From positions 1,824,001-1,888,000 of the forward strand of contig OZ241883.1 in the NCBI GenBank assembly GCA_965203445.1: a DNA stretch of 64,000 nt, read 5' to 3'. Both the position numbers and the translations under genes were made by a program. This document shows positions 7,655-55,768 of the stretch, in pieces. The notes beneath the pieces are model-generated. The model was not told the origin of the DNA and did not search any database. It saw only the letters and a program-made list of their open reading frames with translations. The first letter of the stretch is position 1; the number at the start of each line of letters is the position of its first letter. This DNA is from Candidatus Oxydemutator sp. Its GTDB lineage: Bacteria > Pseudomonadota > Gammaproteobacteria > Poriferisulfidales > Oxydemutatoraceae.

Positions 7655-7667
7655 CCGCCTCGCGCTC

Positions 7668-26937: not shown

Positions 26938-26979
26938 CCACGTAGCTCCCGTCGCCGATGAGGCGGAGACCGTCTTATT

Positions 26980-36386: not shown

Positions 36387-37583
36387 ATGAAAAACAACCT
36401 GGAAGAATTGTTGCGCGGCACCGCCGAAGTGCTGCTGCCGGAGGAACTTGAAAAGCGCTTGGCCGCGGGCAGACCGCTGGTGGTCAAGGCCGGTTTCGAT
36501 CCGACGGCGCCCGACCTGCACCTGGGACATACGGTGTTGATCAACAAGTTGCGGCAGTTTCAGCGGCAGGGGCACGCGGTCAAGTTCGTGATCGGCGATT
36601 TTACCGGCATGATCGGCGACCCGAGCGGGCGCGACAAAATGCGCCCGCCGCTGACCAGGGAGCAGGTCGAGGAAAACGCCGCGACCTACGCCGGGCAGAT
36701 CTACCGGATACTCGACGAGGACGCGACCGACGTCTGCTTCAACTCGAAATGGCTGGCGGCGCTGTCGGCGGAAGACATCGTGGCGCTGGCCGCGCGCCAC
36801 ACCGTCGCGCGCATGTTGGAACGCGACGATTTCCAGAAACGCTACAGCGGCGGACGGGCGATCGGCATCCACGAGTTTCTGTACCCGTTGCTACAGGGCT
36901 ACGACTCGGTCGCTTTGCGCGCCGACGTCGAGTTGGGCGGCGTCGATCAGAAGTTCAACCTGCTGGTCGGCAGGGAATTGCAGAAAGACTACGGCCAGCC
37001 GCCGCAGGTTGTGATGACGATGCCGTTGCTCGAGGGGCTGGACGGCGTGCGCAAGATGTCGAAGTCGCTGGACAACCACGTCGCGGTCGCGGCGTCGCCG
37101 GCGGAGACGTTCGGTCGGCTGATGTCGGTGTCGGACGAGTTGATGTGGCGCTATTTCGAGTTGCTGAGCCTGCGCCCGGGCGCGGACGTCGCGCTGCTCA
37201 GGCAGGCGGTCGCGGACGGACGCAACCCGCGCGACGTCAAGTTCGAGTTGGCCGGGGAGATCGTCGCGCGTTTTCACGACGCGCGCGCCGCGGCCGCCGC
37301 GCGCGACGATTTCATCGCGCGTTTTCAGGAGCGCGCGACGCCGGACGACCTCGAGACGCGCGAGGTGACGATTGCCGAAGCGCGGGTGCCGTTGGCGGTG
37401 TTGCTGCGCATGTCGTCGCTGACCGCGTCGTCATCCGAGGCGCGGCGCATGATTCGGCAGGGCGCGGTGCGCGTGGACGGCGAGAAGATCGAGGACGCCG
37501 ATCTTGAGGTCGAGGCCGGCAGCGAGCGCGTGTACCAGGTGGGGCGCCGCCGCTTTCAGCGTATCCGCGTAATCAGGTCCTGA
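36387..37583 (+). CDS. tyrS: Tyrosine-tRNA ligase
   Basis: [28 protein letters not shown]-terminal S4 domain. Confidence 0.97.
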
Positions 37584-38188
37584 CCGCGCAGCTCGCGGTG
37601 GATCGTGAGATCGCGGTGCAGCCGCTCGATCCGGCGCCGCAATTCTTCCAGGTCGCCGTTGTTGTCCAGCACCACGTGCGCGGCTTGCAGCCTCTCGTCG
37701 CGTCCGGCCTGGGTCGCAAAGATTTTGCGCACCGCGGCCTCGTCGCAGCCGTCGCGCTCGATGATGCGCGTCGTCCGCGTGCGCTCGTCGCAATCCATGA
37801 CGACGACGACGTCCACCAGGTCGTCCATGCCGGCCTCCAACAGCAGCGGCGCACTGATGACGCAGTATGCGTGGTCGGCGTCGAGCGCCGCGGTGCGCCG
37901 CTCGATCTCGCGCCGCACCGCGGGATGCAAAATCGCGTTCAGCCGCCGTCGCGCGTCGGTGTCGTCGAAGATCAGGCGGCGCAATCGCGCGCGCTCCAGG
38001 CGCCCGTCCTGGTCGAGCATTTCGTCGCCGAACGCGGCGCTGATCTTCTCGAGGTGCGGGGCGCCCGGGCGCGTCAATTCGCGCGCGATTTCGTCGGCGT
38101 CGAGCAGCGGCGCGCCGTGTGCGCGAAACATCGCGCCGGCCTCGCTCTTGCCGCAGCCGACGCCGCCGCTCAGGCCGACGCGGATCAC
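37556..38188 (-). CDS. coaE: Dephospho-CoA kinase
   Basis: [33 protein letters not shown]; GTG start overlaps the pilD stop. Confidence 0.92.
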
Positions 38189-39030
38189 TGTAGGCTCCCG
38201 TTTGCGAGCAGCAGCCGCAGCGGGTTTTTGAAGGCGTCGGCGGACAGCAGGCACAGCCAGCCGGCGAGCGCCAGATGTGGGCCGAACGGAATCCGGGTTG
38301 CGCGCCGCCACTTGCCGGCGGCGATCATCGAAAGGCTTGCCGCGAGACCGCTGAGCGAAGCCAGCAGCACGATGCCGGGCAGCACCTGCCAGCCGAACCA
38401 GGCGCCGAGCGCGGCCAACAACTTGACGTCGCCTCCGCCCAGTCCCTGCCGTTTTCTGAGTGCCGCGTACGAGCGCTCGAGAACGAAGAAGGAGAGGTAG
38501 CCGGCGATCGCACCCATGATCGCCGACTGCGCGTCGGCAAACGTCGCCAGGCCGTTGACGGCGAGACCGAACCACAGCAGCGGCAGCGTGATTGCGTCGG
38601 GTAGCAGGCCGTCGCGCAGGTCTATCGCCGCCAGCGTCGTCAGACACGCGGCGAGTACGACGCCGGCTGAAAACTGCGGCCACGCGTCGTGGGCGAGCGC
38701 GACGCCGACGCAAGCCAGCGCCGTCGTCAGTTCGACTATCGGGTAACGCGGGCTGATCGGCGTCCGGCAGTGTGCGCACCGACCCTTCAAAAGCAGATAG
38801 CCCAGCAACGGCACGTTGTGGCGCCATGCGATCGGTTGCCGGCAGGCGGGGCAGTGCGACGCCGGCGTCGCCAGCGACAGATGGTCGTAGCCGTCGTCGC
38901 CCGGTTCGTCGTCCGGCTCGCGCTGCGACGGCATCAGCGGCAGACGGTAGATGACGACGTTCAAGAAACTGCCGAGTATCAGCCCGCCGCCAAAAACGGC
39001 GGCCAGCCATGGCCAGGAGGAGTCGAGCAT
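38185..39030 (-). CDS. pilD: Prepilin peptidase/N-methyltransferase
   Basis: GSFLNVVIYRLP, SHCPAC, KGRCAHC, RYPIVE, GGGDVKL, IPFGP. Confidence 0.95.
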   Translation of the reverse strand: MLDSSWPWLAAVFGGGLILGSFLNVVIYRLPLMPSQREPDDEPGDDGYDHLSLATPASHCPACRQPIAWRHNVPLLGYLLLKGRCAHCRTPISPRYPIVELTTALACVGVALAHDAWPQFSAGVVLAACLTTLAAIDLRDGLLPDAITLPLLWFGLAVNGLATFADAQSAIMGAIAGYLSFFVLERSYAALRKRQGLGGGDVKLLAALGAWFGWQVLPGIVLLASLSGLAASLSMIAAGKWRRATRIPFGPHLALAGWLCLLSADAFKNPLRLLLANGSLQ

Positions 39031-39293
39031 ACCGGATTATAGGGCAACCGCTGTTCGTGTTCACCGATGCACCGGCAAAAGGTCGTCGGTTTGTCAGGCG
39101 TTTCTTTCTCGAGCGCCCGCTGCGCCCGGAACGTCGCAGTAAATCAGATGAGTGTTATCCCTCGTGGTATGCCTCCAAAATACAGGTTTCAGGGAAACCC
39201 CGTTCCGGCGGCGCATCAGTGAACCTTTACGGGAATGACGGACTCAAGGGGGCGGCGGGGCAGGTGGGGGGTCGCATTGATTAAAGTTCGGCT

Positions 39294-39983
39294 ATGCCAT
39301 ATGCTAATCGGATGAGATTGTCTTCCTTTCCGGCGGTTCGGGCGGTGTTCGCGGCCGTTTGTCTGGTCGGGCTTTGTCGGGGTTCGGCGGCACTGGCCGA
39401 AGCGGAGGACACCAGCGCCTCGAGCTACGACGACTGCACCCGAATCGAGCTGGATTTGGAGGCGGCAGCCGGGGCGCTCACCGACGAGGAGAAAATTGCG
39501 CTGATGGATAGGGAGTTTTATGAATCTTTGGCGCGCTTTGACCGTTGCCAGGCTTCGTTCTCGTCCGATGACGGCGGCGGTAGCGATGGCGGCGGTAGCG
39601 ATGGCGGTGGTAGCGATGGCGGCGGTAGCGACGGTGGTCAGGGCGGCGGAGTACAATCGGTGCCGTCCGCGTCCGTTTCCGGAACCGACCCGGAAAAAGC
39701 CTCGGAAGAGGAACCGAAAGAGGGCCGCGAACCGGGGACGCCCGCAGTGCAGCCGGCGACCGCGGAGCACTCGTCCACGCCGCGGGACAACGGCAAGACA
39801 CCCGACGACATTCCTCCCGCCAACAACGACGACATAATCGCGCGGGGGCTGCGCGAGGTCGCGGAAAATGAAAAGAATCCCGAGGAAAGAGAGAAGCTAT
39901 GGAACGAGTACCGCAAATACAAAAACCTGCCCGTCAAGGAGGCGCCCTCGGAAGAGCGGCCCGCACCAAAGCAGTCCCGATGA
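39294..39983 (+). CDS. Exported acidic low-complexity protein, first gene of the motor/vWA operon
   Basis: Signal-peptide-like N-terminus, two Cys, DGGGS repeats, C-terminal NGKTPDDIPPANND..A..LRE.A..E.....REKLWNEYRKYK. Start uncertain. Confidence 0.7.
   Translation: MPYANRMRLSSFPAVRAVFAAVCLVGLCRGSAALAEAEDTSASSYDDCTRIELDLEAAAGALTDEEKIALMDREFYESLARFDRCQASFSSDDGGGSDGGGSDGGGSDGGGSDGGQGGGVQSVPSASVSGTDPEKASEEEPKEGREPGTPAVQPATAEHSSTPRDNGKTPDDIPPANNDDIIARGLREVAENEKNPEEREKLWNEYRKYKNLPVKEAPSEERPAPKQSR
39570..39638 (+). repeat. 15-bp coding tandem repeat (DGGGS, about 4.6 copies)
   Basis: gayggcggyggtagc units. Confidence 0.9.
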
Positions 39984-41209
39984 GATACCGGTTGTCGCGG
40001 GCGGCGTTGGTGCCGTTGACGTTGCTGCTTTCGGCGTGCGTCACCACCGGAAGTTTCCCTGGTTTCGGCGCGGGCCAAGGCGCCGCGGTCGGCCCCGGCA
40101 GCATCGAAGACGATGCCGTCTCCGCCACCGCCGGCTTGCCGGCGAACACTCCTAGACTGGACGTCGTCATTCCGGTTTTCGACCCCGGTTTGCCGCAAGA
40201 TCCCGACGATTACGCGGACAGCGGCGTGTGGCCGGAGCTGCGCCGTGCCGAGGCCAACCGCTTCGCGTTGAAGATGAAGGAGGCGCTCGAGAAAACCGAG
40301 GCCTTCGGCGCGGTGCGTGTGACCCCCGACAAGACCGCGGTCGGAGACCTGTACATATTAGGCGCCATCGAGGAATCCAACGGCGAGGACGTTGAGATCC
40401 GTATCGAAGCGGTGGCCATGTCCGGCAGGCGCTGGCACGCCGAGACTTATGAGCATCGCGTCAAGGAGGCGTTCTACCAGGACCCGCGCAGCAAGGGCGA
40501 AGACCCGTACGCGCCGGTGTTCGCCGAGGCCGCCGCCGACGTCGTGTCGAAGTTGCGCAAGAAGTCCGGCGACGAGCTGGCGCGGTTGCAGGCCGTAACC
40601 GAGATGCGTTTTGCCGCGTCTCTGTCGCCGGGCGCGTTCGGCGAGCATCTCAAGCAAAGAGGCGACACGTTCACGCTGGCCAGCCTGCCGGCGGAGGCGG
40701 ATCCGATGCTTGCCAGGACGCGCGCCTTGCGCGTGCGCGACCAGTTGTTCGTCGACCGTTTGCAGAAACATTACGAGGACTTCGACACGCGCATGGACGA
40801 GAGCTATTCGGTTTGGCAGAAGGAAAGTTTTCAGGAGGTGAAGGCGGCGCGCGCGGCTTCCAGAAAGGCGTGGTTGGAGGGGCTGGCAGGCGCGGTGATC
40901 GTCGGTCTTAGCGTGGCGGCCGCGGTCAGCAGCGACAACCCCAATACCGGGGACGTGGCCCAAGTCGGCGCCGTCGCCGGTGGGCTCCTGATAGCAAAGA
41001 GTTTCCAGACGCGGGAGGAGATGAAGATCCACCGCGAGGCCCTGGCCGAGCTGGGCGAGTCCATCCATACCGAGCTTGCGCCGGCGGTGTTGGAGTTCGA
41101 GAACAAGACGGTTACGCTTACCGGCAACGTCGAGGAACAGTTCGCCCAATGGCGGACTTATCTGAGGCGCATATACGAGCAGGAGGCGACGCCGGAAGTT
41201 CGTATGTAA
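39980..41209 (+). CDS. Putative outer-membrane lipoprotein
   Basis: Lipobox LLLSA-C with Val at +2; ATGA overlap with the upstream stop; glycine-zipper-like hydrophobic pair near the C-terminus. Confidence 0.75.
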   Translation: MRYRLSRAALVPLTLLLSACVTTGSFPGFGAGQGAAVGPGSIEDDAVSATAGLPANTPRLDVVIPVFDPGLPQDPDDYADSGVWPELRRAEANRFALKMKEALEKTEAFGAVRVTPDKTAVGDLYILGAIEESNGEDVEIRIEAVAMSGRRWHAETYEHRVKEAFYQDPRSKGEDPYAPVFAEAAADVVSKLRKKSGDELARLQAVTEMRFAASLSPGAFGEHLKQRGDTFTLASLPAEADPMLARTRALRVRDQLFVDRLQKHYEDFDTRMDESYSVWQKESFQEVKAARAASRKAWLEGLAGAVIVGLSVAAAVSSDNPNTGDVAQVGAVAGGLLIAKSFQTREEMKIHREALAELGESIHTELAPAVLEFENKTVTLTGNVEEQFAQWRTYLRRIYEQEATPEVRM

Positions 41210-41217
41210 GGCCGGCG

Positions 41218-42741
41218 ATGGGAAGCCCCGTTGCAGAAAAAGTCGCGGCCGCGGCGGCCGCGAGCGCCACTAGAAAAAAGATCGTCGGGTTCCTGGCGGC
41301 CGTTGTTTTTGTCGTCGTCGCGGTCGTCGCCGCGGCCTACTTTATCTGGTCGCCGCCCGAGACCCGCGTTGCGACGCCCGCGCACGTCGTCGGCGGCGCG
41401 GACACGGGCGCCGGCGAGGGTGCGGGCGCCGGCGGGGGTGTGGGCGCCGGCGGGGGTGCGGGCGCCGACGGGGGTGCGAGCGCCGGCGGAGTCGGCGCCG
41501 ACGAAGATGCCGACGCGCTGAGGCGGGAGTTCAAAAGGCTGCTCAAATCGTTTCAGTCGGAGCTGGAGCCGGCCTTGCGGCGGGTATCCGTCGCCGCGTG
41601 GGACGCCGCCGCCCACGACGATATATTTTCGCGCAAAGAAAAAGCGTTGCGCGCCTTTGGCGCGGGCAATTATTCGTCCGCCGTCCACCTGCTGCAAGGC
41701 GCCTCGGAGGTCGCCGCCGAGATCCTGCGCTTGGCCGAGCGGAGTTTTCGTTCGAGCATCGAGGCCGCGGCACGCGCCCTGCATGCGAACGACGTCGCCG
41801 TCGCGCGCGCGAGCATAGCGCGGGCGTTGTTGATAAAGCCGGACGCGGCGGAGGCTTTGGCCCTGCGGGCGCGCATAGCGGTTCTGCCCGAAGTATTGCG
41901 GCTGCTGGAAGCGGCCGATGCGGCGCGTATCGAGAACGATGACGCGCTGCATCGGGCGCGGCTTCAGGAAATCGTGCGCCTGGACGCGGCGCGCGAGGAC
42001 CTCAAGGAGCGGCTGCGCGTATTGTCCGAGAGGATGATCGAGCGCGAGTTCACGGGCTACGTCGCCGCCGGCGTGGACGCCGTCGCCAAACGCGACCTGG
42101 CGGCCGCGACGCGGTCTTTGCGGCGCGCGCAGGAGATCCATCCGGCGCGCGAGGAAGTCGCGTTGTTGGAGCGCGACGTGCGGCGACTTGCGCGCCGGGT
42201 CGCGCTCCAAGAGCATCTGCGCGCGGCCGCCGCGGCCGTGGCCGACGACGACTGGGCGCGGGCGCATCGGCGTTTCCGCGAAGCGGTCGCGGTCGACGCC
42301 ACCGCGGACGCGGTCGACGGCGAGAAACTTGCCGCGCGCGTCATCGCCGCGCACGAGGAGATCGCCTCCTATCTGGCGCGCCCGCGCCGGCTGTCCTCGC
42401 CAAACGTCGCGGCCGTGGCCGAGACCGCGCTGCGCGCGACCCGCGATCTGCATCGGGCAAGCCCGTCGCTGGCGCGCCAAGCCGGTATGCTTGAACGGTT
42501 GGTCGCCGATTACGCCACGCCGGTGCCGGTGCTCGTGCGCTCCGACAACCGCACCGAAATCCTCGTGCGCGGCGTCGGCAGAATCGGCAAGATCGGCGAG
42601 AAAGTCGTCGACCTGAGGCCGGGCGCCTACACTTTCGAGGGCAAGCGCCAGGGCTACAGGTCGAAGCTGATCCGCATCGAGGTGGCGCCTCGCCAGCGGC
42701 CGCCGGAAGTGACGCTGATTTGCGATGAGCGCCTGCGATGA
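41218..42741 (+). CDS. Single-pass membrane protein with a TPR-like helical body and a PEGA-like C-terminal domain
   Basis: N-terminal TM, GAGGGA linker, helical repeats, VRSDNRT...LRPGAYTFEGKRQGYR. Confidence 0.7.
   Translation: MGSPVAEKVAAAAAASATRKKIVGFLAAVVFVVVAVVAAAYFIWSPPETRVATPAHVVGGADTGAGEGAGAGGGVGAGGGAGADGGASAGGVGADEDADALRREFKRLLKSFQSELEPALRRVSVAAWDAAAHDDIFSRKEKALRAFGAGNYSSAVHLLQGASEVAAEILRLAERSFRSSIEAAARALHANDVAVARASIARALLIKPDAAEALALRARIAVLPEVLRLLEAADAARIENDDALHRARLQEIVRLDAAREDLKERLRVLSERMIEREFTGYVAAGVDAVAKRDLAAATRSLRRAQEIHPAREEVALLERDVRRLARRVALQEHLRAAAAAVADDDWARAHRRFREAVAVDATADAVDGEKLAARVIAAHEEIASYLARPRRLSSPNVAAVAETALRATRDLHRASPSLARQAGMLERLVADYATPVPVLVRSDNRTEILVRGVGRIGKIGEKVVDLRPGAYTFEGKRQGYRSKLIRIEVAPRQRPPEVTLICDERLR
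41407..41490 (+). repeat. 18-bp coding tandem repeat (GAGGGA-type, about 4.7 copies)
   Basis: ggcgccggcgggggtgcg units. Confidence 0.9.
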
Positions 42742-44762
42742 ACACATTTGACGCGCGCTTGCGCTCGGCGCGCGCGCGCCAGCGTCGCGTGTTTGCGTTC
42801 GTCGTTCTCGGCGCGGTCGCGGCCGTGGTTCTGGTGGTGGCGTTCTGGGCTTCGACCCAGGGCGTATCGCTGATCGTAACACCGCGCGCGGCCGCCGATA
42901 CACTCGAGTTGCGAACCCTGCAGGGGTTCGGGTTCACCGCCGCGACCAGCGTCTACGCCTTCGGCGACGTGGTTGTCGAGGCGCGGGCACCGGGCTTTGT
43001 CACCGAGCGGATCGCGGTCGCATCGGGCAAGCAGAGCACGTTTCTTGAGGTCGCGATGCGCGAGGCGCCGGCATCGTTGCAGGTAACGACCGTGCCTGAG
43101 GCCGACGACACCGGTTGGTTTTTGAACGGCGCGCCGGTCGCGACGTCGCGCAGCCTGTCGTTGGAGACCGCGGCCGGCACGCATACCATAGTCATTAACC
43201 ATCTTTATTATCAGAAAGCCGCGCTTGAGGTTTTCGTCGGTCGCGGCCAACGCTTTCGCCGGGAAGTGCGGTTGGCGCCGTTGCGCGGCGAGATCCGAAT
43301 CCGCACGACGCCGCCGGGTGCAATGGTCTCGATGGACGGTGCGATCCGCGGCGCCGCTCCCGGCGTCTATCCGACGGCCGGCGGGCGCCGCACCGTTCGC
43401 GTCACCCATCCGGGTTATGAGGAGGTGCGCGACACCATAAATATCACCAACGCGGCCGCCGTCGTCGTAAGAAACTACCGGTTGCGGCCGCAGGGCGCGT
43501 TCGTGCGTTTTCGGTTGCACCCGCCGGGCGGGCGGCTGACGTTGGACGGCAAGCGCGTGGACGCCGCCGGGCGCGTGCGGGTGGACTCGATGCGCGAACA
43601 CGTGGCGTCTTATTTCAAGCCGGGCTGGCTGGCGCAAACCGAGACCTTCACGCTGCCGCCGTCGGGCGAGCGCGAAGTGCATCTTTCGCTGCGCGAGGAA
43701 ATCGGCGTCGTCGAGGTCGTGTCGAGACCGCCGGCCACGGTGTCGGTCAACGGCGAGAGCGCCGGCGTCACGCCGCTGACCCTGCGCTTGCGCGCCGTCA
43801 TGCACGAGATCACCGTCGCCAGAGAGGGCTACCGCAGTGTTACGCGCAAGTTGACCCCCGCCTCCGGCGCCGCCAGGAAGGTGGACGTGACGCTCGTCGA
43901 GGAGGCGTCGGCGAGATTGGCGGAAAGTCCCGCCGTGTACAAGAACAGCATCGGCATGACGCTGCGTTTATTCCGGCGCCCGGGAGTCTTCGAGATGGGG
44001 GCGCCGCGTCATGAACGAGGCCAGCGCGCCAACGAGTTCCGAAGAAAGGTGCGGCTTGAAAAGGCGTTTTACGCGGCGACGCACGAGACGACCGCGGCGC
44101 AATACGCACGATACAAGGGCGGCGGCGGCGCGCCGTCGGGGTCGCCGGGCGTGCCCGCGACCGGCGTCACGTGGCTTCAGGCGGCGGCTTTTTGCAACTG
44201 GTTGAGCGCCCGGGAGGGACTGCGGCCTTTTTATCGGTTGCAGCACGGCCGTTATCTCGGCGCCGACGTGCGCGCCGACGGCTACCGTCTGCTCACCGAG
44301 GCCGAGTGGGAATGGCTCGCGCGCAAGGCCGGGCGCGCACGCCAGACCCGCTTTACCTGGGGCGACGCCGACGCGGTGCCGGCGGCGGCGGGCAATCTGG
44401 CGGATCGCTCGGCCAAGGGGAAGCTCCAGTCCTACATTCCAAACTATAGCGACGGCTACGACGGCCTCGCGCCGGTGGCGAGCTTCGCCGCCGATCGGTC
44501 GGGACTGTACGACCTGTCGGGGAACGTCAGCGAGTGGGTACACGACGTATATTCGTTGGCACCGCCCGCGCCCGGCGTCGAAGTGGATCCGGTCGGCCGC
44601 GCCGTCGGCCAGGCCCACGTGTTCAAGGGCTCCAACTGGCGTTCCGCCACGATTACCGAGTTGCGGGCGTCTTTTCGGGAGACCGCCGCCGCCGGACGCG
44701 ACGATTTGGGTTTTCGTGTGGCAAGATATTTGTACGGAGGAGAAAACACCGATGATCAATAA
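42738..44762 (+). CDS. Membrane-anchored multi-PEGA + FGE-sulfatase (SUMF1/PvdO) domain protein
   Basis: TM, several TxPxGA.V..DG PEGA repeats, then FEMG, HETT, VTWLQAAAFCNWLS, YRLLTEAEWEW, GLYDLSGNVSEW, LGFRVAR. Confidence 0.88.
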   Translation: MNTFDARLRSARARQRRVFAFVVLGAVAAVVLVVAFWASTQGVSLIVTPRAAADTLELRTLQGFGFTAATSVYAFGDVVVEARAPGFVTERIAVASGKQSTFLEVAMREAPASLQVTTVPEADDTGWFLNGAPVATSRSLSLETAAGTHTIVINHLYYQKAALEVFVGRGQRFRREVRLAPLRGEIRIRTTPPGAMVSMDGAIRGAAPGVYPTAGGRRTVRVTHPGYEEVRDTINITNAAAVVVRNYRLRPQGAFVRFRLHPPGGRLTLDGKRVDAAGRVRVDSMREHVASYFKPGWLAQTETFTLPPSGEREVHLSLREEIGVVEVVSRPPATVSVNGESAGVTPLTLRLRAVMHEITVAREGYRSVTRKLTPASGAARKVDVTLVEEASARLAESPAVYKNSIGMTLRLFRRPGVFEMGAPRHERGQRANEFRRKVRLEKAFYAATHETTAAQYARYKGGGGAPSGSPGVPATGVTWLQAAAFCNWLSAREGLRPFYRLQHGRYLGADVRADGYRLLTEAEWEWLARKAGRARQTRFTWGDADAVPAAAGNLADRSAKGKLQSYIPNYSDGYDGLAPVASFAADRSGLYDLSGNVSEWVHDVYSLAPPAPGVEVDPVGRAVGQAHVFKGSNWRSATITELRASFRETAAAGRDDLGFRVARYLYGGENTDDQ

Positions 44763-44892
44763 CGGGATTTTTTACGCGGCGTTGGCGCTCATCGTGATCG
44801 TCGCGCTGGCTTATCTGGCGGGGGACATTGCCGCCCGCGGCGCGCCGACGGTGGGCTTGAACTCGCCGACCACGTTTCCGGTGGACATCTGA
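44752..44892 (+). CDS. 46-aa single-pass membrane peptide (absent from the ORF track)
   Basis: MINNGIFYAALALIVIVALAYLAGDIAARGAPTVGLNSPTTFPVDI. RBS GGAGGAG upstream; fills the gap exactly, overlapping the upstream stop and ending 1 nt before the MotA-like start. Confidence 0.7.
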   Translation: MINNGIFYAALALIVIVALAYLAGDIAARGAPTVGLNSPTTFPVDI

Positions 44893-44893
44893 C

Positions 44894-45661
44894 GTGCGCC
44901 TGGATCACCGCGGCATCTGGGTCAACGTGCTGATCCTGATCGCCGTGTTCGTCGTCGTGCATCTTGTGTACCTCGGGCTGATTCGCCCGCAGGCCGAGTT
45001 GGCGCTGGAAGCCGCGCGCCAGGCCGGACAGTCGGCGCCCCGGGATCTGTTCGTGATTTTGAAGGACCTGGAGCAGGAGATCTGCATCGTGCTGATGATT
45101 TACGGTCTCTATCTGATGTCGGTCAAGTACGCGAGCCTGGTGTCGCGGCGTTATCTGTTCACGGTGGATCTGCTGCAAGACGCCGGCGCCGACGAAGGTA
45201 GCCTGGGCAACGTGCTCGAGGAACTGGAGAAGCTGCCGCGACACGTCGGCGAGACGCCGCTGGTCGAGACCCTGAAGGCCAGCTTGCGGCGCTACCTGAT
45301 AACCCGCGACGTGCAGAATACCTCGGACGCGATCAGCGCCAGCGTCGAGGCGCAGGGGGTGCGTCTCGAGGCCGAAAATTCGACCATCCGCTACCTGATC
45401 TGGGCGATCCCCTCGATTGGTTTCATCGGCACCGTGCGCGGCATCGGACAGGCGTTGTCGCAGGCCGAGAAGGCCCTGGCCGGGGACATTGCGACGATGA
45501 CCGACAGCCTGGGCGTGGCCTTCAATTCGACCCTCGTGGCGCTGCTGATCAGCATTTTCCTGATGTTCTTCCTGCACCAGTTGCAACGCGCCCAGGACGG
45601 CTTGCTGGTCGAGACCCAGGCCTACTGCGAGAAGTTTCTGCTCAATCGCATCAGCAGCTAG
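44894..45661 (+). CDS. MotA/TolQ/ExbB proton channel protein
   Basis: WAIPSIGFIGTVRGIGQAL...LGVAFNSTLVALLIS. Confidence 0.9.
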   Translation: MRLDHRGIWVNVLILIAVFVVVHLVYLGLIRPQAELALEAARQAGQSAPRDLFVILKDLEQEICIVLMIYGLYLMSVKYASLVSRRYLFTVDLLQDAGADEGSLGNVLEELEKLPRHVGETPLVETLKASLRRYLITRDVQNTSDAISASVEAQGVRLEAENSTIRYLIWAIPSIGFIGTVRGIGQALSQAEKALAGDIATMTDSLGVAFNSTLVALLISIFLMFFLHQLQRAQDGLLVETQAYCEKFLLNRISS

Positions 45662-45669
45662 GTGCGGTC

Positions 45670-46731
45670 GTGCGCAGACGCCGAAAAACCGAGGGCTTCA
45701 ACCTCGCCTTTTTGGACATCATGTCCTGCGGCCTGGGTGCGGTCATACTTATTTTTCTGATAGTCAAGCACAACGTGGACAAGGGTTCGGTCGAGGCCGA
45801 CGTCACGTTGTCGGAACTGGCAGCGATGGAGCAACGGGAGCGGCAACTGCAAAAGGAGGTCGAGACCGCGAGGCGGGACAACGCCGAGGAGCGTAGGCGC
45901 GGCGCCGAACTGGCGAAAAAACTGCATGCGATACGCGCCGCGACGGCCGCGCTCGAGCGCCAGGCGGCGGCGCAGCAGCGCAGCAACGAGCACCTGCAAG
46001 ACGCGGTCGACGAGGCCGCGGCGCGGCGCGCCGCCGACGTGGTGGCGGATGAGGACGCGGGCGAAGAGGAGTATCTGATAGGGCTTGCGGTCGAGGGCGA
46101 GCGCGTCGCAATTTTGCTCGACCGCAGCGCCTCGATGACCGACGAGAAACTGGTGGACGTCATCGTGCGCAAGACGCGCGACGCCGCGCGCAAGCGCGCC
46201 GGCCCGAAGTGGCGCCGCGCCCAAAAGACCGTGCGTTGGTTGCTGAACCGCCTGCCGCGCCAAAGCCGCGTGTCGCTGATCGCGTTCAACGACAAGGCCG
46301 AGGTTTTCGGCGACGCCACGTGGAACGACGCCCGTGACGCGACCGCCGTCGGCTCGCTGTTCGCCGACGTCGCCAAACTGACGCCCACCGGCGCGACCAA
46401 CCTGCAAGCCGGGCTCGAGCGCTTGCGCAAGCTGCGCCCGCGCGCGACCGACGTTTATCTGATAACCGACGGCTTGCCGACCGAGGCCGTATCCAAACCC
46501 TCGCGCCTCGGCAAGTGCGGTTCCTTGTTCGGCAAGAGCAACAACGTCTCCGGCGCCTGCCGCGAGCTGCTGTTCCAGGAAACCCTGCGCGAGTCGGCGC
46601 CGAACGGCGGCGAGGAAGTCAACGTGATCTTGTTTCCATTGGAGGGGGATCCGGCGGCGGCCACCCATTTCTGGAAATGGGCCGCCGCCACTGGCGGTAT
46701 GGTGATGACGCCCGCGGCGGGGTGGCCGTGA
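45670..46731 (+). CDS. ExbD/MotB-like TM + coiled coil + vWA domain protein (1)
   Basis: RRRRK..FNLAFLDIMSCGLGAVILIFLI, coiled coil, MIDAS LLDRSASM...GATN...YLITDGLP. Confidence 0.85.
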   Translation: MRRRRKTEGFNLAFLDIMSCGLGAVILIFLIVKHNVDKGSVEADVTLSELAAMEQRERQLQKEVETARRDNAEERRRGAELAKKLHAIRAATAALERQAAAQQRSNEHLQDAVDEAAARRAADVVADEDAGEEEYLIGLAVEGERVAILLDRSASMTDEKLVDVIVRKTRDAARKRAGPKWRRAQKTVRWLLNRLPRQSRVSLIAFNDKAEVFGDATWNDARDATAVGSLFADVAKLTPTGATNLQAGLERLRKLRPRATDVYLITDGLPTEAVSKPSRLGKCGSLFGKSNNVSGACRELLFQETLRESAPNGGEEVNVILFPLEGDPAAATHFWKWAAATGGMVMTPAAGWP

Positions 46732-46741
46732 GGGGGCGGTC

Positions 46742-47683
46742 GTGAAGCGGCGCGAAAGGAGCGGCGATATTTTCAGCATGTCGCTGTTGGACGTCGTCTC
46801 GTGCGGTTTCGGCGCGATGATCCTGTTGTTGCTGATAACCAAATCGGGTTTCACCGAAGCCGACGTCAACGTTGACCTGAGCGCGTTGCTTGACCGCACT
46901 TTTCAAACCGAGGACAGTATTCGAAGGTTGTCCGAGGAACTCGACGGGTTGCGACGCGAACTTGCCGAGAACCGGCGCGCCAACCAGGACGCGCTCGCTA
47001 GGCAAGACGCGCGACGACGCGAACTCGAACGCAAACGAGCCGCGGGCGCAAGCCTCAGGCGCGAAGGCCAGGGTCTGGAGAACGTGCGGCGCACTTTGCA
47101 GCGCGCCTCGATCTCGCGCGCCACCACCGACGAACGCGATACCGAGGTCGGCGGCATACCGGTGGACAGCGACCACGTCATTTTCATCATAGATACCTCG
47201 GGCAGCATGCAAAGCATCTGGGACAAGGTCACGCGGACGATAGAGAATATCCTGGACGTCCATCCCCAGGTGCGCGGCTTTCAGATACTCAACGACAACG
47301 GTTTCTATCTGGTCGGCGGCTACCGCGGAAAATGGATAGCGGACACGCCGAAAAGAAGGAAAAGCATACTGAACGCGGTGCGTTCCTGGGGCGCGCTCTC
47401 GAACAGCAGCCCGGTCGAGGGCCTCGAGGTCGCACTCAAGACGTATGCCGGCAAGCGCGACAAAATATCCATCTACATATTCGGCGACGACTTCGCCGGT
47501 TCGTCCTACGATACGGTCATTCGCACCATAGAGAAGCTGAACACCGACAAGATCAGCGGTGCGCCGATTGTCCGGGTTCACGCGGTCGGCTTTTCCTCGG
47601 GCGGCGTCCCCGAGCGCTTCGGCATCCTGATGCGCGAGGTAACCGGAAAAAACAACGGCGTGTTCCTGGCGTTGCCGCCGTGA
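46742..47683 (+). CDS. ExbD/MotB-like TM + coiled coil + vWA domain protein (2)
   Basis: KRRER..FSMSLLDVVSCGFGAMILLLLI, coiled coil, MIDAS FIIDTSGSM...SNSSP..G...YIFGDDF...VHAVGF. Confidence 0.85.
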   Translation: MKRRERSGDIFSMSLLDVVSCGFGAMILLLLITKSGFTEADVNVDLSALLDRTFQTEDSIRRLSEELDGLRRELAENRRANQDALARQDARRRELERKRAAGASLRREGQGLENVRRTLQRASISRATTDERDTEVGGIPVDSDHVIFIIDTSGSMQSIWDKVTRTIENILDVHPQVRGFQILNDNGFYLVGGYRGKWIADTPKRRKSILNAVRSWGALSNSSPVEGLEVALKTYAGKRDKISIYIFGDDFAGSSYDTVIRTIEKLNTDKISGAPIVRVHAVGFSSGGVPERFGILMREVTGKNNGVFLALPP

Positions 47684-47711: not shown

Positions 47712-48905
47712 TTACAGCGCGAAGCCGAGATTGAATATCGGCAGGTACATCGTCGCCACGATCCAGCCGACGGTGCCGGCTATCAGCAGAATCAGCAGGG
47801 GTTCGGTCAGCTGGATCACGCGCTCGGATGTAGCGGCGATGCGCTCGTCGTAGAACTCGGCGATCTGGCGCAGCGCCTCGTCGAGGCGTCCGCTGTTTTC
47901 GCCGATGCGTATCACGCGCCGAAAGAAACGGTCGAAAAAGCCGGCGCTGCGTACCGCCTCGGAGAATCCCGCGCCTTCCTCCAGGCGTGCCGAGACGCGC
48001 TCCAGCGCCTTGCTGAAAACCGGATCGGAGGTCGCGTCGCCCAGCCACTCGACGGCGGTGGCGAGGGGCACGCCGGCGTCGTAGGCCGGCGCGACGACGG
48101 TTGCGAAGAGGCGGCACAGATACGCTTTTTTCAAGGTTCCCGCGAACGGCAGCCACAACGTCGCGTACGCCAGCGCGTAGCGAAACCAGCGCGCGTTGCG
48201 ACGTAGCAACGCGAGACCCGCGCACAGCAGGGCGAGCAGCGCGCCGGCGTCGGCGCCGTGTTCGGAAAGAAGCGAGAACAAGCGCAGGGTCAGCTTCGTC
48301 GAGGCCGGCAGCTCGCCGCCGAAATCGGCGTAGAACGATTCGAATTGCGGCATCATTGTAAGCAGCAGCAGCGCCACGACGGCGCCCGACGCGACCAGCA
48401 CCGTGACCGGGTAGGTCGCGGCCCGTTTCAGCTTCTTATGGATCTTTTCATGTTTTTCCCGTTGCGACGCCAGTTCGAGTGCCAGTTCCGCGAGGCGCCC
48501 GCTGTCCTCGCCGGCTTGCAGGATGCGGAAGACGTAGCGGTGGCGCGGGTGCAGGTACGGTGCGATACTCCGCGCAAGGCCGCCGCCGGCCTCGACGTCC
48601 TGCCAGATCAGCGTCAGCGTCCGTTGCAGGCGCGGTTGCGCCTGGCGGCGCAGCAGGTCGAAGACGTCGCCCACGGGCAGCGTCGCGCGCAACAACGTCG
48701 CAAGTTGCCGCAACAGCGCCGTGACGTCGCGCCCGCCGAGGCGCCGCACGCGCCCGCCGGCTGAGATTTTTATCGGGATAACGTCTTGCGTTGCAAGGAA
48801 TTGCCTGAGTTCGTCCTTGTCGCGCGCGGCGCGCACTCCGCTTATGATCTCGCCCGAGGGCACGAGACCGCGCCACCGGAAGCATTTTTTGGCGTCCTCG
48901 GCCAA
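47712..48905 (-). CDS. pilC: Type IV pilus platform protein (T2SS-F family)
   Basis: RQLATLL, GEDSGRL, YPVTVL, GGELPAST, IGENSGRLD, EPLLI, MYLPIF. Confidence 0.88.
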   Translation of the reverse strand: MAEDAKKCFRWRGLVPSGEIISGVRAARDKDELRQFLATQDVIPIKISAGGRVRRLGGRDVTALLRQLATLLRATLPVGDVFDLLRRQAQPRLQRTLTLIWQDVEAGGGLARSIAPYLHPRHRYVFRILQAGEDSGRLAELALELASQREKHEKIHKKLKRAATYPVTVLVASGAVVALLLLTMMPQFESFYADFGGELPASTKLTLRLFSLLSEHGADAGALLALLCAGLALLRRNARWFRYALAYATLWLPFAGTLKKAYLCRLFATVVAPAYDAGVPLATAVEWLGDATSDPVFSKALERVSARLEEGAGFSEAVRSAGFFDRFFRRVIRIGENSGRLDEALRQIAEFYDERIAATSERVIQLTEPLLILLIAGTVGWIVATMYLPIFNLGFAL

Positions 48906-54041: not shown

Positions 54042-54126
54042 GGAGGGGTACCCAAGCGGTCAACGGGGGCAGACTGTAAATCTGCTGGCTATGCCTTCGT
54101 AGGTTCGAATCCTACCCCCTCCACCA
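54042..54126 (+). tRNA. tRNA-Tyr(GTA)
   Basis: ggagggg...gcagactGTAaatctgc, long variable arm, gttcgaat, ccacca end. Confidence 0.95.
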
Positions 54127-54223
54127 TGAAAATGCAGGAGGGGGTAGCCGGGAATAACCGGGGTGGCCATGAGCGCGGAAATGGCAGTCGCAACCGGATT
54201 GCAGGAGGCCGGAACGATTCCGT

Positions 54224-54297
<74 letters not shown>

Positions 54298-54324
54298 GCG
54301 AAGCGCAGGGACGCCCTGAGCCGC

Positions 54325-54399
54325 GCCCATATAGCTCAGTGGTAGAGCACTTTCTTGGTAAGGAAGAGGTCACCGGTTCAATCCCGGTTATGGGCTCCA
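54325..54399 (+). tRNA. tRNA-Thr(GGT)
   Basis: gcccata...ttGGTaa...ggttcaat...tgggctcca. Confidence 0.95.
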
Positions 54400-54427
54400 A
54401 TTCACCAACCGTTCGCAGGAAAACACG

Positions 54428-55618
54428 ATGTCGAAAGAGAAATTTGAGAGGACGAAGCCGCACGTAAACGTAGGCACGATAGGCCACGTGGATCACGGCA
54501 AGACGACGCTGACGGCGGCGCTGACGAAGGTGTTGTCGGAGAGTCAGGGCGGGGAGTATCGTTCGTATGATCAGATAGACAACGCGCCGGAGGAGCGCGA
54601 GCGAGGGATCACGATAGCGACGGCGCACGTGGAGTATGAGTCTGCGGGTCGTCATTACGCGCACGTGGACTGTCCGGGGCACGCGGACTACATCAAGAAC
54701 ATGATAACGGGCGCGGCGCAGATGGACGGGGCGATATTGGTGGTGAGCGCGTCGGACGGACCGATGCCGCAGACGCGGGAGCACATATTGCTGGCGCGTC
54801 AGGTGGGGGTGCCGCACGTGGTGGTGTATTTGAACAAGGCGGACATGGTGGACGACAAGGAGTTGATGGAGTTGGTGGAGATGGAGGTGCGGGAGTTGCT
54901 GACGAGTTACGAGTTTCCGGGGGAGGAGGTACCGATAGTGTCGGGTTCGGCGCTGAAGGCGTTGGAGGGAGACGAGGGTGAGCACGGATCGGGTTCGATC
55001 ATGAAGTTGGTGGGGGCGATGGATGAGTATATTCCGGAGCCGGAGCGGGCGGTGGACGGTGATTTTCTGATGCCGGTGGAGGACGTATTTTCGATTTCGG
55101 GCCGGGGCACGGTGGTGACGGGTCGTATAGAGCGTGGAGTGGTGAAGGTGGGAGACGAGGTGGGTATAGTGGGCGTGCGCGAGACGACGTCGACGACGTG
55201 CACGGGAGTGGAGATGTTCAGGAAGTTGTTGGACGAGGGACGCGCGGGGGACAACGTGGGGGTGTTGCTGCGCGGGACGAAGCGCGAGGAGGTGGAGCGG
55301 GGTCAGGTATTGTGCAAGCCGGGGTCGATCACGCCGCACGTGGAGTTTGAGTCGGAGGTGTACGTGTTGTCGAAGGAGGAGGGTGGTCGTCACACGCCGT
55401 TTTTCAAGGGTTATCGTCCGCAGTTTTATTTTCGGACGACGGACGTGACGGGCGAGGTGGAGTTGGAGTCGGGAGTGGAGATGGTGATGCCGGGGGACAA
55501 CGTGAAGTTCAAGGTGAGGTTGATAGCGCCGATAGCGATGGACGAGGGACTGCGATTTGCGATTCGCGAGGGCGGGCGCACGGTCGGCGCCGGCGTCGTC
55601 ACCAAGGTGTTGAAGTAA
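54428..55618 (+). CDS. tuf: Elongation factor Tu
   Basis: [31 protein letters not shown]. Confidence 0.99.
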
Positions 55619-55692
55619 TGCCGCGCGGTGTCATCGGCGGTGTCGTGGCGGATGCCGTCGCACCGAAGACTTCGCCCAGGGGTTTGCACGAC

Positions 55693-55768
<76 letters not shown>

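Follow-up and report, generated by a model that had tools for sequence, protein, structure and literature searches.

An eight-gene cassette pairing a MotA-like channel with two vWA-headed subunits, a candidate ion-driven envelope machine

Within the window, the 64,000 nucleotides of the Candidatus Oxydemutator sp. contig analyzed here, a run of genes at positions 39294–47683 raises the question of what a MotA-like channel does beside two vWA proteins and five further gene products. According to the original prediction, this stretch is an eight-gene operon for an ion-driven envelope machine. Our analysis bears out the operon at the same coordinates and with the listed products, apart from corrections for the third, fifth, seventh and eighth genes, and partly supports the interpretation. 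Eight closely spaced open reading frames (g1 to g8) lie co-oriented on the + strand. The g1/g2 and g3/g4 pairs each overlap by 4 nt and g4/g5 by 11 nt, while g5 and g6 are separated by 1 nt, g6 and g7 by 8 nt, and g7 and g8 by 10 nt. The products reach from the inner membrane through the periplasm to an outer-membrane-type lipoprotein, and 7 of the 8 proteins face the envelope. A simple hydropathy scan finds a single N-terminal hydrophobic segment in each of g3, g4, g7, and g8. As had been claimed, none of the eight proteins matches a TonB, TolA, OmpA-like or TonB-dependent-receptor family (Pfam, E <= 0.1).

The claim of a MotA-like channel is confirmed by g6 (44894–45661, + strand, 255 aa), a protein of the MotA/TolQ/ExbB family with three TM segments, presumed to be the pentameric ion-conducting part. 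It scores 52.3 bits against Pfam MotA_ExbB (cut-off 22.9), and at least 7994 database proteins match it at E <= 0.001. The scan for its three hydrophobic segments missed TM2, which was placed from an invariant block at residues 166–186. In all 26 aligned sequences, P173, S174, G176, F177, G179, T180 and V181–G185 of TM2 are invariant, as are L206, G207, A209, F210, N211, S212, T213, L217 and S220 of TM3; these include the polar pore residues T180, N211, S212, T213 and S220.

No ExbD-family gene was found beside g6, nor does TolR or MotB accompany it. In the 2.38-Mb genome, the ExbD model matches at only two places, each adjoining another MotA_ExbB gene, and neither is g7/g8. Instead, g6 is followed by g7 (45670–46731, + strand, 353 aa) and g8 (46742–47683, + strand, 313 aa), which we describe as vWA axle subunits 1 and 2. 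In each, a TM helix with an aspartate (Asp16 in g7, Asp17 in g8) leads through a coiled coil to a vWA-type head; the coiled coil of g7 spans about 100 residues and matches coiled-coil chains of the PDB. The g7 head carries a complete MIDAS (D151, S153, S155, T243, D267) and scores 43.7 bits against Pfam VWA_2 (cut-off 27), and 204 clusters at 50% identity match g7 at E <= 1e-30. Over the 46 sequences of the g7 alignment (A1), D16, D151, S153, S155, D267, R298, G326 and D327 are invariant, while T243, T271 and E325 are kept at 90% or more. The g8 head retains D151, S153, S155 and D249, has a conserved SNSSPVEG loop in place of the usual Thr loop, and stays under the VWA_2 cut-off with 17.2 bits. 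It is nevertheless paralogous to g7 over its full length (A1 versus A5 in hhalign: probability 99.8%, E 3.8e-29, 244 columns), and lies directly beside g7 in each g7-bearing relative as a second, weaker match, the pair following g6. The predicted vWA heads are supported: the DxSxS...D metal-site motif is conserved in both (alignments of 46 and 31 sequences), and the TM aspartate, which sits near small residues in both paralogues (D-x-x-x-C-G-x-G), is present in 46/46 g7 and 31/31 g8 sequences. The label "ExbD/MotB-like" is justified only by the Asp-bearing helix, the one element that these proteins have in common with ExbD, TolR and MotB; the ExbD model matches neither.

This three-gene core is known from computational prediction. 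The relevant parts of PMC12204202 (Mol Biol Evol 2025) describe a TolQ-like gene alongside two heterologous vWA proteins of "trans-pore-helix" type that have a conserved Asp, with no tolR/exbD; section 8 and Fig. 4c–d of that paper give an AF3 prediction of the same core, in which the pentamer's Thr ring encloses the two Asp residues. Its function is stated as unknown in those parts, where tensile force exerted at the outer membrane is suggested. Since the core is already published in this form, the gene set is not wholly undescribed. The earlier statement that no assigned function is known agrees with literature searches, which found no experimentally determined function in print. No paper on the five accessory genes came up in these searches.

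The original prediction had been made to depend on co-occurrence of the genes across genomes. Profile searches and a synteny survey of all eight genes recovered a conserved cassette. Searching a collection of one genome per species with the g7 alignment gave at least 600 pattern matches and at least 591 confirmed loci. We examined 92 loci, comprising 12 fetched from relatives and the best 80 of the at least 591 confirmed; the full order g1–g8 is kept in 69 of them, and contig ends cut 13. By jackhmmer, g6, g7 and g8 were detected in 92/92 loci, g4 in 90, g3 in 82, g2 in 80, g1 in 75 and g5 in 70. With homologues down to E 1e-150 and gene order kept across several bacterial classes, the operon finding is far beyond chance. 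Flanking genes differ among genomes, no gene cluster there being common to more than 7 of the 92 loci: all eight genes move as a block, in fixed order and without another conserved neighbour. Here the cassette is inserted between pilC and pilD, a position newly reported in this work; the two genes are adjacent in 4/4 relatives examined. Within the phylum, the cassette is patchy (19 of 401 genomes sampled, 11 of 329 high-quality ones, about 3–5%), so its function is accessory and not universal.

Among the accessory proteins, g1 (39294–39983, + strand, 229 aa) is an acidic exported protein (pI 4.5) with a signal-like N-terminus (hydrophobic residues 9–36) and a small N-domain in which a pair of Cys residues is conserved. 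A disordered Gly/Ser/acidic linker, encoded in part by 15-nt tandem repeats at 39570–39644, leads to a conserved C-terminal block, NGKxPxDIPPxDNDS...LWNEYRKYKGLP (alignment A4, 26 sequences). No Pfam or NCBIfam family matched g1. The next protein, g2 (39980–41209, + strand, 409 aa), is an outer-membrane-type lipoprotein whose lipobox Cys20 is invariant in 33/33 aligned homologues. Its AlphaFold2 model (pLDDT 81.6, pTM 0.78) suggests an alpha/beta domain at residues 51–197 that resembles those of PelC, CsgG, FlgT, LptE and the TolB N-terminus, followed by a long helical hairpin with a hydrophobic Gly/Ala-rich tip (242–361) and a small C-terminal beta-hairpin and helix. No sequence relative of g2 was found in the PDB. 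VIA-align Z scores of 10.0–10.5 link it to 8z5n (LPHT ring), 5t10/5t0z (PelC), 6uxc, 2iqi and 6lqh (CsgG), and Foldseek gives E 2.7e-4 to 1e-2 for the same structures, a likeness that reflects a common lipoprotein fold, Z near 10 being no proof of ring formation. The PelC/CsgG/FlgT/LptE-like character of the N-domain, as modelled, is newly reported here.

Two scaffold-like proteins follow. The longest open reading frame of g3 (41149–42741, + strand, 530 aa) probably starts too early, the true start being placed at 41218, which leaves an 8-nt gap after g2. In this inner-membrane-anchored protein, a TM helix and a disordered Gly/Ala-rich linker (18-nt tandem repeats at 41386–41495) are followed by a helical solenoid of TPR type, about 340 residues long, and by a beta-sandwich at the C-terminus; the model has pLDDT 90.1. 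At the family level, the profile hits consensus TPR proteins (E 4e-23), and Pfam TPR_2 is found in 12/29 members. The TM and TPR parts that had been proposed stand, but the PEGA part is at most PEGA-like: Pfam PEGA matches 0/29 members, and the sandwich resembles a carboxypeptidase regulatory-like fold (E 4e-3). True PEGA repeats are found in g4 (42738–44762, + strand, 674 aa; 88.8 bits, cut-off 20.8, E 2.2e-25, 2 stretches), where they form a stalk behind one hydrophobic segment (15–48) that anchors it in the inner membrane. The stalk ends in a non-catalytic FGE-sulfatase fold at residues 414–663 (114.9 bits, cut-off 23.3, E 6.3e-33), and the protein lacks a Cys pair because C486 is its single cysteine.

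We favour, with moderate confidence, a reading in which the products of all eight genes make up a single self-contained machine of the envelope, centred on an ion-driven motor of the 5:2 type, with g5 as a built-in ligand. A g7/g8 heterodimer would sit with its two Asp-bearing helices inside a ring of five g6 subunits, much as ExbD sits within ExbB, and ion flow would turn the g6 ring relative to this pair, whose coiled coil would project both vWA heads across the periplasm. The inner-membrane-anchored g3 (with its TPR solenoid and sandwich) and g4 (PEGA stalk and FGE-fold tip) may serve as scaffolds, g2 may form a ring or plug at the far end of the machine, and g1 could be an exported partner or cargo. 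In this reading the motor would act mechanically on the g2 complex, whether in gating, in exporting g1 or in tethering the envelope. We infer the 5:2 stoichiometry, the ion drive and force transmission via the heads, and the same applies to whatever part the machine plays in secretion, motility or remodelling; the parallel with AglRQS/CglB is an analogy.

A rival proposal, which we consider unlikely, is that the machine serves secretion or export by a proteobacterial counterpart of T9SS/PelBC logic: the motor would energise an outer-membrane ring of g2, through which g1 or g5 would be exported or displayed, and the FGE-fold domain of g4 would take the place of PorK/GldK under the outer membrane. 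The N-domain of g2 does resemble the export-ring lipoproteins PelC and CsgG, its hydrophobic hairpin could enter the membrane, and g1 is exported and disordered with a C-terminal block that might act as a recognition signal. GldK is also the top NCBIfam match of the g4 fold (E 5.4e-20), but 72 bits is far under the cut-off of 350, so that the GldJ/GldK parallel is an analogy, and g4 is TM-anchored, not a lipoprotein. Moreover, Pfam finds no outer-membrane beta-barrel, ATPase or glycosyltransferase in the cassette, and g1 is its least constant member, relocated or undetected in some loci, including some that retain all other genes.

Tol-Pal-like tethering or stabilisation of the envelope, in which the vWA heads reversibly grip g2 and hold or pull the outer membrane without transport, is likewise doubtful. 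With a motor in the inner membrane, a rod across the periplasm and a lipoprotein of the outer membrane, the design recalls TolQR-TolA-Pal, the cassette is retained in small genomes (1.4–2.4 Mb) of planktonic or symbiotic relatives, and the tensile force suggested in PMC12204202 would fit. However, the genome already holds two canonical MotA_ExbB plus ExbD sets, Pfam detects no peptidoglycan-binding domain in the cassette, and so small a share of the phylum carries it.

We regard as very improbable a Zorya-type anti-phage system or envelope-stress sensor, in which disturbance of the envelope would be sensed by the MotAB-like unit and relayed inward. Patchiness, differing flanks and block movement, as at pilC/pilD, are in keeping with it, and g6 weakly matches ZorA (PADLOC PDLC00635, E 4.3e-4; NCBIfam ZorA_4, E 0.029), but that match is restricted to the common MotA-like segment. 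The other seven proteins have no convincing defence-model match, the cassette lacks ZorB, ZorC and ZorD as well as any nuclease or other effector of the cytoplasm, nearly all products face the envelope, and the genes flanking the cassette here are housekeeping genes, not defence islands. It is just as hard to credit that there is no rotary motor and that g6 only conducts ions or has a regulatory role, with g7/g8 simply sharing its operon as metal-dependent adhesins held in the membrane or as vWA proteins of a chaperone-like, Bat-like type. Operons without a motor, such as the Bat aerotolerance operon, do encode TM-anchored vWA proteins together with TPR partners, but a passive anchor would not need the invariant TM aspartate near small residues, the g7/g8 pair strictly adjoins g6 in 92/92 loci, and Pfam finds no MoxR-type ATPase in the cassette.

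For the ion-driven machine that we favour, g5 (44752–44892, + strand, 46 aa) offers a candidate ligand. It had been called a TM peptide; with its hydrophobic, signal- or anchor-like N-terminus and its conserved C-terminal tail (...GLNSPTTFPVDI-COOH), g5 more closely resembles a small protein that is exported or anchored by its signal than a plain TM peptide. Separately from jackhmmer detection, the tail motif ...SL(N/D)SPxxFPVDI proved near-universal: in 90/92 loci, the MotA-like gene is immediately preceded by an ORF that ends in [FLMV]P.[DN]I; of the other two, one carries the motif with further residues after it and one is truncated at the end of its contig. P43, D45 and I46 are invariant in 24/24 aligned sequences.

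Complex prediction places this tail on g7. The g5–g7 pair scored 0.80 against 0.01 for the best of 3 controls, a mark attained by 116/157 solved complexes and 2/215 mismatched pairs in a calibration that differed from our inputs (custom alignments and two riding Mg ions), and the score may partly reflect memory of MIDAS–ligand complexes already solved. Between runs, at least 89% of contacts are shared, partner pLDDT is at least 66, and a control with g7 replaced and g8 kept scored 0.00. Residues 34–46 of g5 contribute to the interface, and the g7 side comprises S153, S155, T243, T271, R298, E325, G326 and D327, eight invariant or near-invariant head residues of A1, among which R298 and E325–D327 lie outside the MIDAS motif. 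In the predicted pose, the tail (...NSPxxFPVDI-COOH) would dock on the MIDAS face of g7, placing Asp45 and the C-terminal Ile46 beside Ser153–Ser155 and Thr243. This modelling supports binding of the g5 tail to that face of the head; the tail motif and its controlled prediction are newly reported here. We prefer to see g5 as a latch or cap that might hold or regulate the g7 head until the outer-membrane partner is engaged. What counts against docking is distance: the tail of an anchored g5 would lie no more than about 15 residues from the inner membrane in most lineages, and the g7 head lies beyond the long coiled coil.

The two proteins also covary. Where g5 ends in N-I (10/10 loci), position 168 of g7, which sits within the predicted interface, is Leu or Met; where it ends in D-I (80/80 listed loci), this position is Lys or Arg. 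The K/R168–D45 covariation counts as a single evolutionary event because it is confined to one clade (Alteromonadales-type loci). Were g5 cleaved, at AxA-like sites judged by eye only, it would yield a free peptide of about 13–25 residues.

The original prediction described eight co-oriented, tightly coupled genes, and we indeed found eight head-to-tail ORFs on the + strand at 39294–47683. The first, g1 (39294–39983, 229 aa), is followed by g2 (39980–41209, 409 aa), g3 (41149–42741, 530 aa as the longest ORF, with a start probably at 41218), g4 (42738–44762, 674 aa), and the gene of the mini-protein g5 (44752–44892, 46 aa). Downstream lie g6 (44894–45661, 255 aa), encoding the MotA-like channel, and the two vWA genes g7 (45670–46731, 353 aa) and g8 (46742–47683, 313 aa), in this order and with gaps of 8 and 10 nt. 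Junctions throughout the cassette are either overlaps of 4–11 nt or gaps of 1–10 nt, a spacing consistent with a single translationally coupled operon. A sigma-70 scan detected no + strand site upstream of g1, and no RNA family was found within the cassette using Rfam. Terminator-like sites numbered 18, compared to 8.5 ± 3.4 in shuffled sequences, and none was convincing.

Co-occurrence of the eight genes had been chosen beforehand as one of the tests on which the prediction could fail. A pattern search of species-representative genomes with the g7 family alignment (46 sequences) gave at least 600 stretches; tblastn confirmed at least 591 of them, from which the best 80 were retrieved. Together with 12 loci from relatives they make up the 92 loci analyzed, two of which may be one stretch taken twice. 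Using iterative searches, g6, g7, and g8 were matched in 92/92 loci, g4 in 90, g3 in 82, g2 in 80, g1 in 75, and g5 in 70. The cassette is fully collinear in 69 of the 92 loci and 13 others touch the end of the available DNA, while the remaining 10 differ mostly in g1, which is relocated or undetected. Going by record titles, the best 80 of the at least 591 matches belong to Alpha-, Gamma-, and Zetaproteobacteria, Nitrosomonadaceae, Binatia, and Desulfobacterota-type MAGs, and their cultured carriers include Magnetovibrio, Sneathiella, Aestuariispira, Denitrobaculum, Glaciecola, Pseudoalteromonas, Alishewanella, Salinimonas, Agaribacter, and Opacimonas. Among 1.84 billion representative proteins, those matching g7 at E ≤ 1e-30 fall into 204 clusters. 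When the phylum was sampled evenly, g7 was present in 19/401 genomes (11/329 of high quality; 8/212 genera). With g7 as query, the tandem g7/g8 pair was detected in 25 of 41 genomes of the same order, the source genome included (24/36 among high-quality genomes), and a second vWA match adjoins the first in tandem in every g7-bearing relative.

The cassette splits a string of genes lying on the opposite strand. The pilC/pilD/coaE string occupies 37556–39064 (−) and 47712–48905 (−); pilD, assigned by homology as prepilin peptidase-like, is at 38185–39030 (−) with coaE next to it, and the T2SS-F/PilC gene forms the other flank at 47712–48905 (−). In 4/4 relatives examined (two from the same genus, two from the same family), pilC and pilD lie side by side with about 10 nt between them, and coaE comes next; in one of the two same-genus genomes the cassette sits on a different contig. 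This indicates that the eight genes moved or were inserted as a block. No terminal direct or inverted repeats were found around the cassette, and there is no composition break, the GC content being 0.64–0.69 within and around it. A sigma-70-like site (TGAACA-16-TATAAT, 10/12 matches) is present at 39063–39036 on the − strand, just upstream of the displaced pilD. The pilC/pilD/coaE string was rejected as a conserved context, since the other carriers gave one pilC match and no pilD or coaE. Clustering of 1164 flanking ORFs yielded no cluster present in more than 7/92 loci. The patchy spread, the conserved order, and the lack of shared neighbours point to a self-contained accessory module.

At the core of this module, g6 is a MotA/TolQ/ExbB protein as had been proposed (MotA_ExbB PF01618, residues 124–238, 52.3 bits for a cut-off of 22.9, E = 6e-14), and it was also recovered above the cut-off in a whole-genome MotA_ExbB scan. 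We assigned three TM segments to it: hydropathy scores TM1, TM3, and a weaker stretch at 63–83, and TM2 was placed from the invariant 166–186 block rather than from the hydropathy scan. P173–G185 (TM2) and L206–S220 (TM3) are almost wholly invariant in 26/26 homologues. The polar residues T180 (in the GTVRGIG block), N211, S212, T213, and S220 are invariant in the 26 sequences and would correspond to the pore threonines of ExbB/TolQ. Two weaker MotA_ExbB matches lie elsewhere in the source genome, at 1552956–1553168 and 2171109–2171351 of its contig C1 (E = 8e-8 and 4.6e-4). They lack an adjoining ExbD match and may be other atypical stator-like units.

In g7, a variable, heptad-rich stretch of about 100 residues connects the N-terminal TM helix to a vWA domain (VWA_2, 43.7 bits for a cut-off of 27). 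Its MIDAS residues D151, S153, S155, and D267 are invariant among 46 diverse homologues, at least 90% of which also keep T243. g8 is a diverged full-length paralogue of g7, the alignment running through the head (hhalign 99.8%, E = 3.8e-29), although its own VWA_2 score of 17.2 bits falls under the cut-off of 27. In g8, D151, S153, S155, and D249 are invariant (31 sequences) and a conserved SNSSPVEG loop takes the place of the Thr loop. The two subunits had been called ExbD/MotB-like. The TM aspartate expected of such partners is present in both helices (g7 D16, invariant in 46/46; g8 D17, invariant in 31/31), whereas the domain part of the name does not hold: neither protein matches ExbD (PF02472) or an OmpA-family domain at E ≤ 0.1. 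A six-frame scan of the genome gave only two ExbD matches, both outside the cassette and each beside another MotA_ExbB gene. No TonB, TolA, OmpA-like domain, or TonB-dependent receptor was matched in the eight proteins at E ≤ 0.1, in line with what had been noted. Reading of the translations revealed no His and no SHLS motif in the g7 and g8 helices.

Our literature searches returned one relevant paper and no experiment. Its section 8 and Fig. 4c–d describe a “second family” of TM-tethered vWA genes (PMC12204202; Mol Biol Evol 2025;42:msaf138) that co-occur tightly with tolQ homologues in the absence of tolR/exbD, mostly as heterologous pairs with a tolQ/motA-like gene directly before them. 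According to the same passages, the trans-pore helix bears a conserved Asp and no SHLS/His motif, AF3 places this helix inside the Thr ring of a TolQ-like pentamer, and the family, given as of unknown function, occurs chiefly in Proteobacteria and Verrucomicrobia (PMC12204202). Compared by description, g6-g7-g8 match every feature stated in these passages; an Aliidiomarina locus (L089), among the best 80 of the at least 591 matches, carries the full cassette. The claim that the gene set had no assigned function thus stands as regards function in the passages of this paper, but the g6-g7-g8 core had already been described computationally. Those passages mention neither the five upstream genes nor a mini-protein or head ligand. 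The text of the paper contains none of the words sulfatase, formylglycine, and PEGA; its Fig. 4c may show neighbouring genes. Our searches gave no paper on the accessory genes. What is new here is the g5 tail motif, together with its predicted partner on g7.

An ORF ending in [FLMV]P.[DN]I lies immediately upstream of the MotA-like gene in 90/92 loci. Of the other two, one is cut by a contig end and one has the motif followed by an extension; in the latter (L041, upstream of 9061), the tail motif …SFPVDI continues for 17 residues with no stop, which may reflect a mutated stop codon or an assembly error. The consensus tail reads I-S-L-(N/D)-S-P-x-x-F-P-V-D-I-COOH, with P43, D45, and I46 invariant in 24/24 aligned copies. 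The hydrophobic N-terminus is variable and, by eye, is usually followed by an AxA-like site, so that g5 may be cleaved to a peptide of about 13–25 residues. Some lineages have a longer g5 with an acidic linker. The tail motif was not found at the end of any of the other seven gene families in the 92 loci, that is, there are no fusions.

Because a MIDAS site kept invariant should have an acidic ligand that is likewise conserved, g5 was chosen for complex prediction. We modelled g7 100–353 and g8 100–313 with two Mg ions, g5 being the scored partner, and obtained a score of 0.80, compared to 0.01 for the best of 3 controls. In the calibration of the tool this mark was reached by 116/157 solved complexes and 2/215 mismatched pairs, counts that hold roughly given that our own alignments and a riding metal were used. 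When g7 was replaced and g8 kept, the score dropped to 0.00. At least 89% of contacts are shared between the runs, and the partner pLDDT is at least 66. In the predicted interface, g5 residues 34–37 and 39–46 contact g7 153–155, 241–243, 271–272, 290–296, 298, and 325–329, and D45 and I46 adjoin g7 154–155 and 241–242. The model thereby supports binding of the g5 tail to the MIDAS face of the g7 head.

Two observations made outside the model agree with this docking. Eight invariant or near-invariant residues of the g7 head fall within the interface (S153, S155, T243, T271, R298, E325, G326, and D327), of which R298 and E325–D327 are outside the MIDAS motif. Furthermore, a g5 ending in N-I goes with Leu or Met at g7 position 168 (10/10 loci) and a D-I ending with Lys or Arg (80/80 listed); the ten N-I loci form one clade, so this K/R168–D45 covariation counts as a single event. 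In the integrin I-domain and complement factor B, a ligand carboxylate, from an Asp/Glu side chain or a chain terminus, binds at the DxSxS…T…D metal site. The predicted g5 tail would likewise place D45 and the C-terminal I46 at the metal site. Unlike in those proteins, the ligand in the cassette would be a genetically linked peptide of about 13–25 residues, with the head carried by a subunit of the motor.

Starting from the family memberships, invariant residues, paralogy, strict co-occurrence and order, and predicted folds computed here, the following mechanism appears most likely. A g6 pentamer would surround a g7/g8 heterodimer, ion flow would drive their relative rotation, and the coiled-coil stalk would carry the vWA heads across the periplasm. 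With its tail on the g7 MIDAS, as predicted, g5 could act as a built-in ligand, latch, or cap regulating head engagement, which is the reading we prefer. The geometry to reconcile is that the g5 tail would be membrane-proximal and the g7 head distal.

In this mechanism, g3 and g4 would serve as scaffolds anchored in the inner membrane. As anticipated, g4 combines one TM segment, PEGA repeats (PF08308, 88.8 bits for a cut-off of 20.8, in 2 stretches), and a complete FGE-sulfatase fold (PF03781, 114.9 bits for a cut-off of 23.3, positions 9–255 of the 255 in the model). True formylglycine-generating enzymes need a catalytic Cys pair, and the only cysteine of g4 is C486, making such a pair impossible. 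For g3, a TM, TPR-like, and PEGA protein had been expected: the TM helix and the TPR (family profile against consensus TPR chains, E = 4e-23) were retrieved, while PEGA was matched in 0/29 family members. Pfam TPR_2 was matched in 12/29 members, and the copy in the window has no Pfam TPR match at E ≤ 0.01. In the g3 model (pLDDT 90.1), a disordered Gly-rich linker joins the TM helix to a helical solenoid of about 340 residues (93–433), after which comes a C-terminal beta-sandwich resembling, at the level of fold only, the PEGA-related carboxypeptidase regulatory-like sandwich. Foldseek gave no match for g3 at E ≤ 0.001.

The outer-membrane end of the apparatus would be g2, with g1 as a partner or cargo. 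g2 bears the expected features of an outer-membrane-type lipoprotein, with an LSAC lipobox whose Cys20 is invariant in 33/33 homologues; its sorting to the outer membrane is predicted from the E. coli +2 residue rule. In the g2 model (pLDDT 81.6, pTM 0.78), the N-domain (residues 51–197) has as best structural neighbours 8z5n (Vibrio LPHT ring), PelC, CT253, XCC0632/DUF330, and CsgG (Z 10.0–10.5), and Foldseek ranked the FlgT structure 3w1e alongside them. These neighbours are lipoproteins that occupy the outer membrane or lie beneath it, several of them forming rings. The N-domain is followed by a long helical hairpin with a hydrophobic, Gly/Ala-rich tip. The g2 profile found no sequence relative in the PDB (best E 0.42), and the ESM Atlas gave unnamed lipoprotein clusters only. 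g1 is acidic (pI 4.5) and, judged from its sequence, exported as foreseen: its signal-like N-terminus leads into a small domain with a Cys pair, and a Gly/Ser/acidic linker of low complexity connects this domain to a conserved block at the C-terminus. The disordered linkers of g1 and g3 are encoded by in-frame tandem repeats, of 15 nt at 39570–39644 (GGGSD units of g1) and of 18 nt at 41386–41495 (Gly/Ala-rich linker of g3), which could allow strain-to-strain length variation.

These proteins leave room for different outputs. The motor might drive export of g1 through a g2 ring, a rival to which the signal-like g1 and the ring-forming neighbours of g2 lend themselves; the fold matches of g2 are to a common lipoprotein fold. 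It might also serve outer-membrane tethering of the Tol type. As in ExbB-ExbD-TonB and TolQ-TolR-TolA, the channel is a MotA_ExbB-family protein with three TM segments, its partners have a single TM helix bearing an essential-type Asp, and an outer-membrane lipoprotein stands at the far end, like Pal in Tol-Pal. However, the cassette lacks the ExbD/TolR periplasmic domain and a third subunit of the TonB/TolA type, its two central subunits differ from each other and themselves end in coiled coil and vWA heads, and nothing in ExbBD/TolQR corresponds to its PEGA/FGE and TPR scaffolds or to its mini-protein with the conserved tail. A Zorya-like sensor, or a non-motor vWA system, is less likely: ZorAB also pairs a MotA-like channel with an atypical partner in a mobile accessory cassette, but PADLOC gave a single weak, partial ZorA match (E = 4.3e-4, 79 residues) with no ZorB, ZorC, ZorD, ZorE, or effector, and its other defence annotation was sub-threshold noise.

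The reading of g5 as a built-in ligand or latch can be extended to a full scheme, which we consider rather improbable as a whole. The cassette would then be a complete, previously undescribed trans-envelope nanomachine, in which the axle of a rotary ion motor bears integrin-like heads loaded with an encoded mini-peptide. The g5 tail would act as a tethered or diffusible clutch or latch, ion flow would perform work on the g2 ring only upon displacement or pull of the peptide, and g1 would be exported or displayed. If true, this would represent a new principle of 5:2 motor regulation and a proteobacterial counterpart of the T9SS/gliding architecture. In T9SS, GldLM (PorLM) is a 5:2-type motor whose central subunits form a long periplasmic dimer towards an outer-membrane-associated assembly, to which the cassette can be likened, and the PorK/GldK-PorN assembly includes, like the cassette with g4, a non-catalytic FGE-fold protein. 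In contrast to PorK/GldK, g4 is TM-anchored and not a lipoprotein, its N-terminus being a TM segment without a lipobox Cys, and it scores 72.1 bits on the GldK equivalog TIGR03525, under the cut-off of 350. The cassette also lacks the GldM/PorM-type periplasmic domain, the Sov translocon, and CTD cargo, and its carriers are Proteobacteria and allies rather than Bacteroidota. In the Myxococcus Agl-Glt gliding machinery (PMC9946355), as here, a motor of the TolQR type works with a vWA/MIDAS protein coupled to it, and with TPR and lipoprotein envelope parts. There, the vWA protein is the adhesin CglB, an outer-membrane lipoprotein apart from the motor, which retains ExbD/TolR-like subunits, while in the cassette the vWA heads form part of the central motor subunits themselves. 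Glt homologues were not seen.

5:2 ion-driven motors (MotAB, ExbBD, TolQR, GldLM, and ZorAB) power flagella, nutrient import, outer-membrane integrity, gliding/secretion, and phage defence. The cassette would extend this group by one more branch, with a central pair that serves as the arm delivering the force and bears metal-dependent binding heads at its end. At least 591 species-representative genomes carry it; carriers range from cultured marine genera (Pseudoalteromonas, Glaciecola, Sneathiella, Magnetovibrio, and Alishewanella) to very small planktonic or symbiont genomes. The parts list and the proposed contact between the g5 tail and the g7 MIDAS, with its K/R168–D45 covariation, make the system directly testable.

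Elsewhere in the window, the stretches 1–9000 and 18000–27000 have a GC content of 0.53–0.58, compared to 0.64–0.70 in the rest, and on composition may be acquired DNA. Four otherwise ordinary-looking tRNA genes are located at 54042–55765, in a stretch of unusually high GC skew (0.26). Among the cassette loci, in some lineages an extra gene of about 300–330 aa separates the MotA-like gene from the first of the vWA genes (L016:6062–6973, −; L017:9136–10062, +; L018:5586–6584, −), with similar gaps in L019–L021, L098, L100, and L102. No Pfam match was obtained in the 3/3 examples scanned. The lineages with this extra gene also have the longer, acidic g5.
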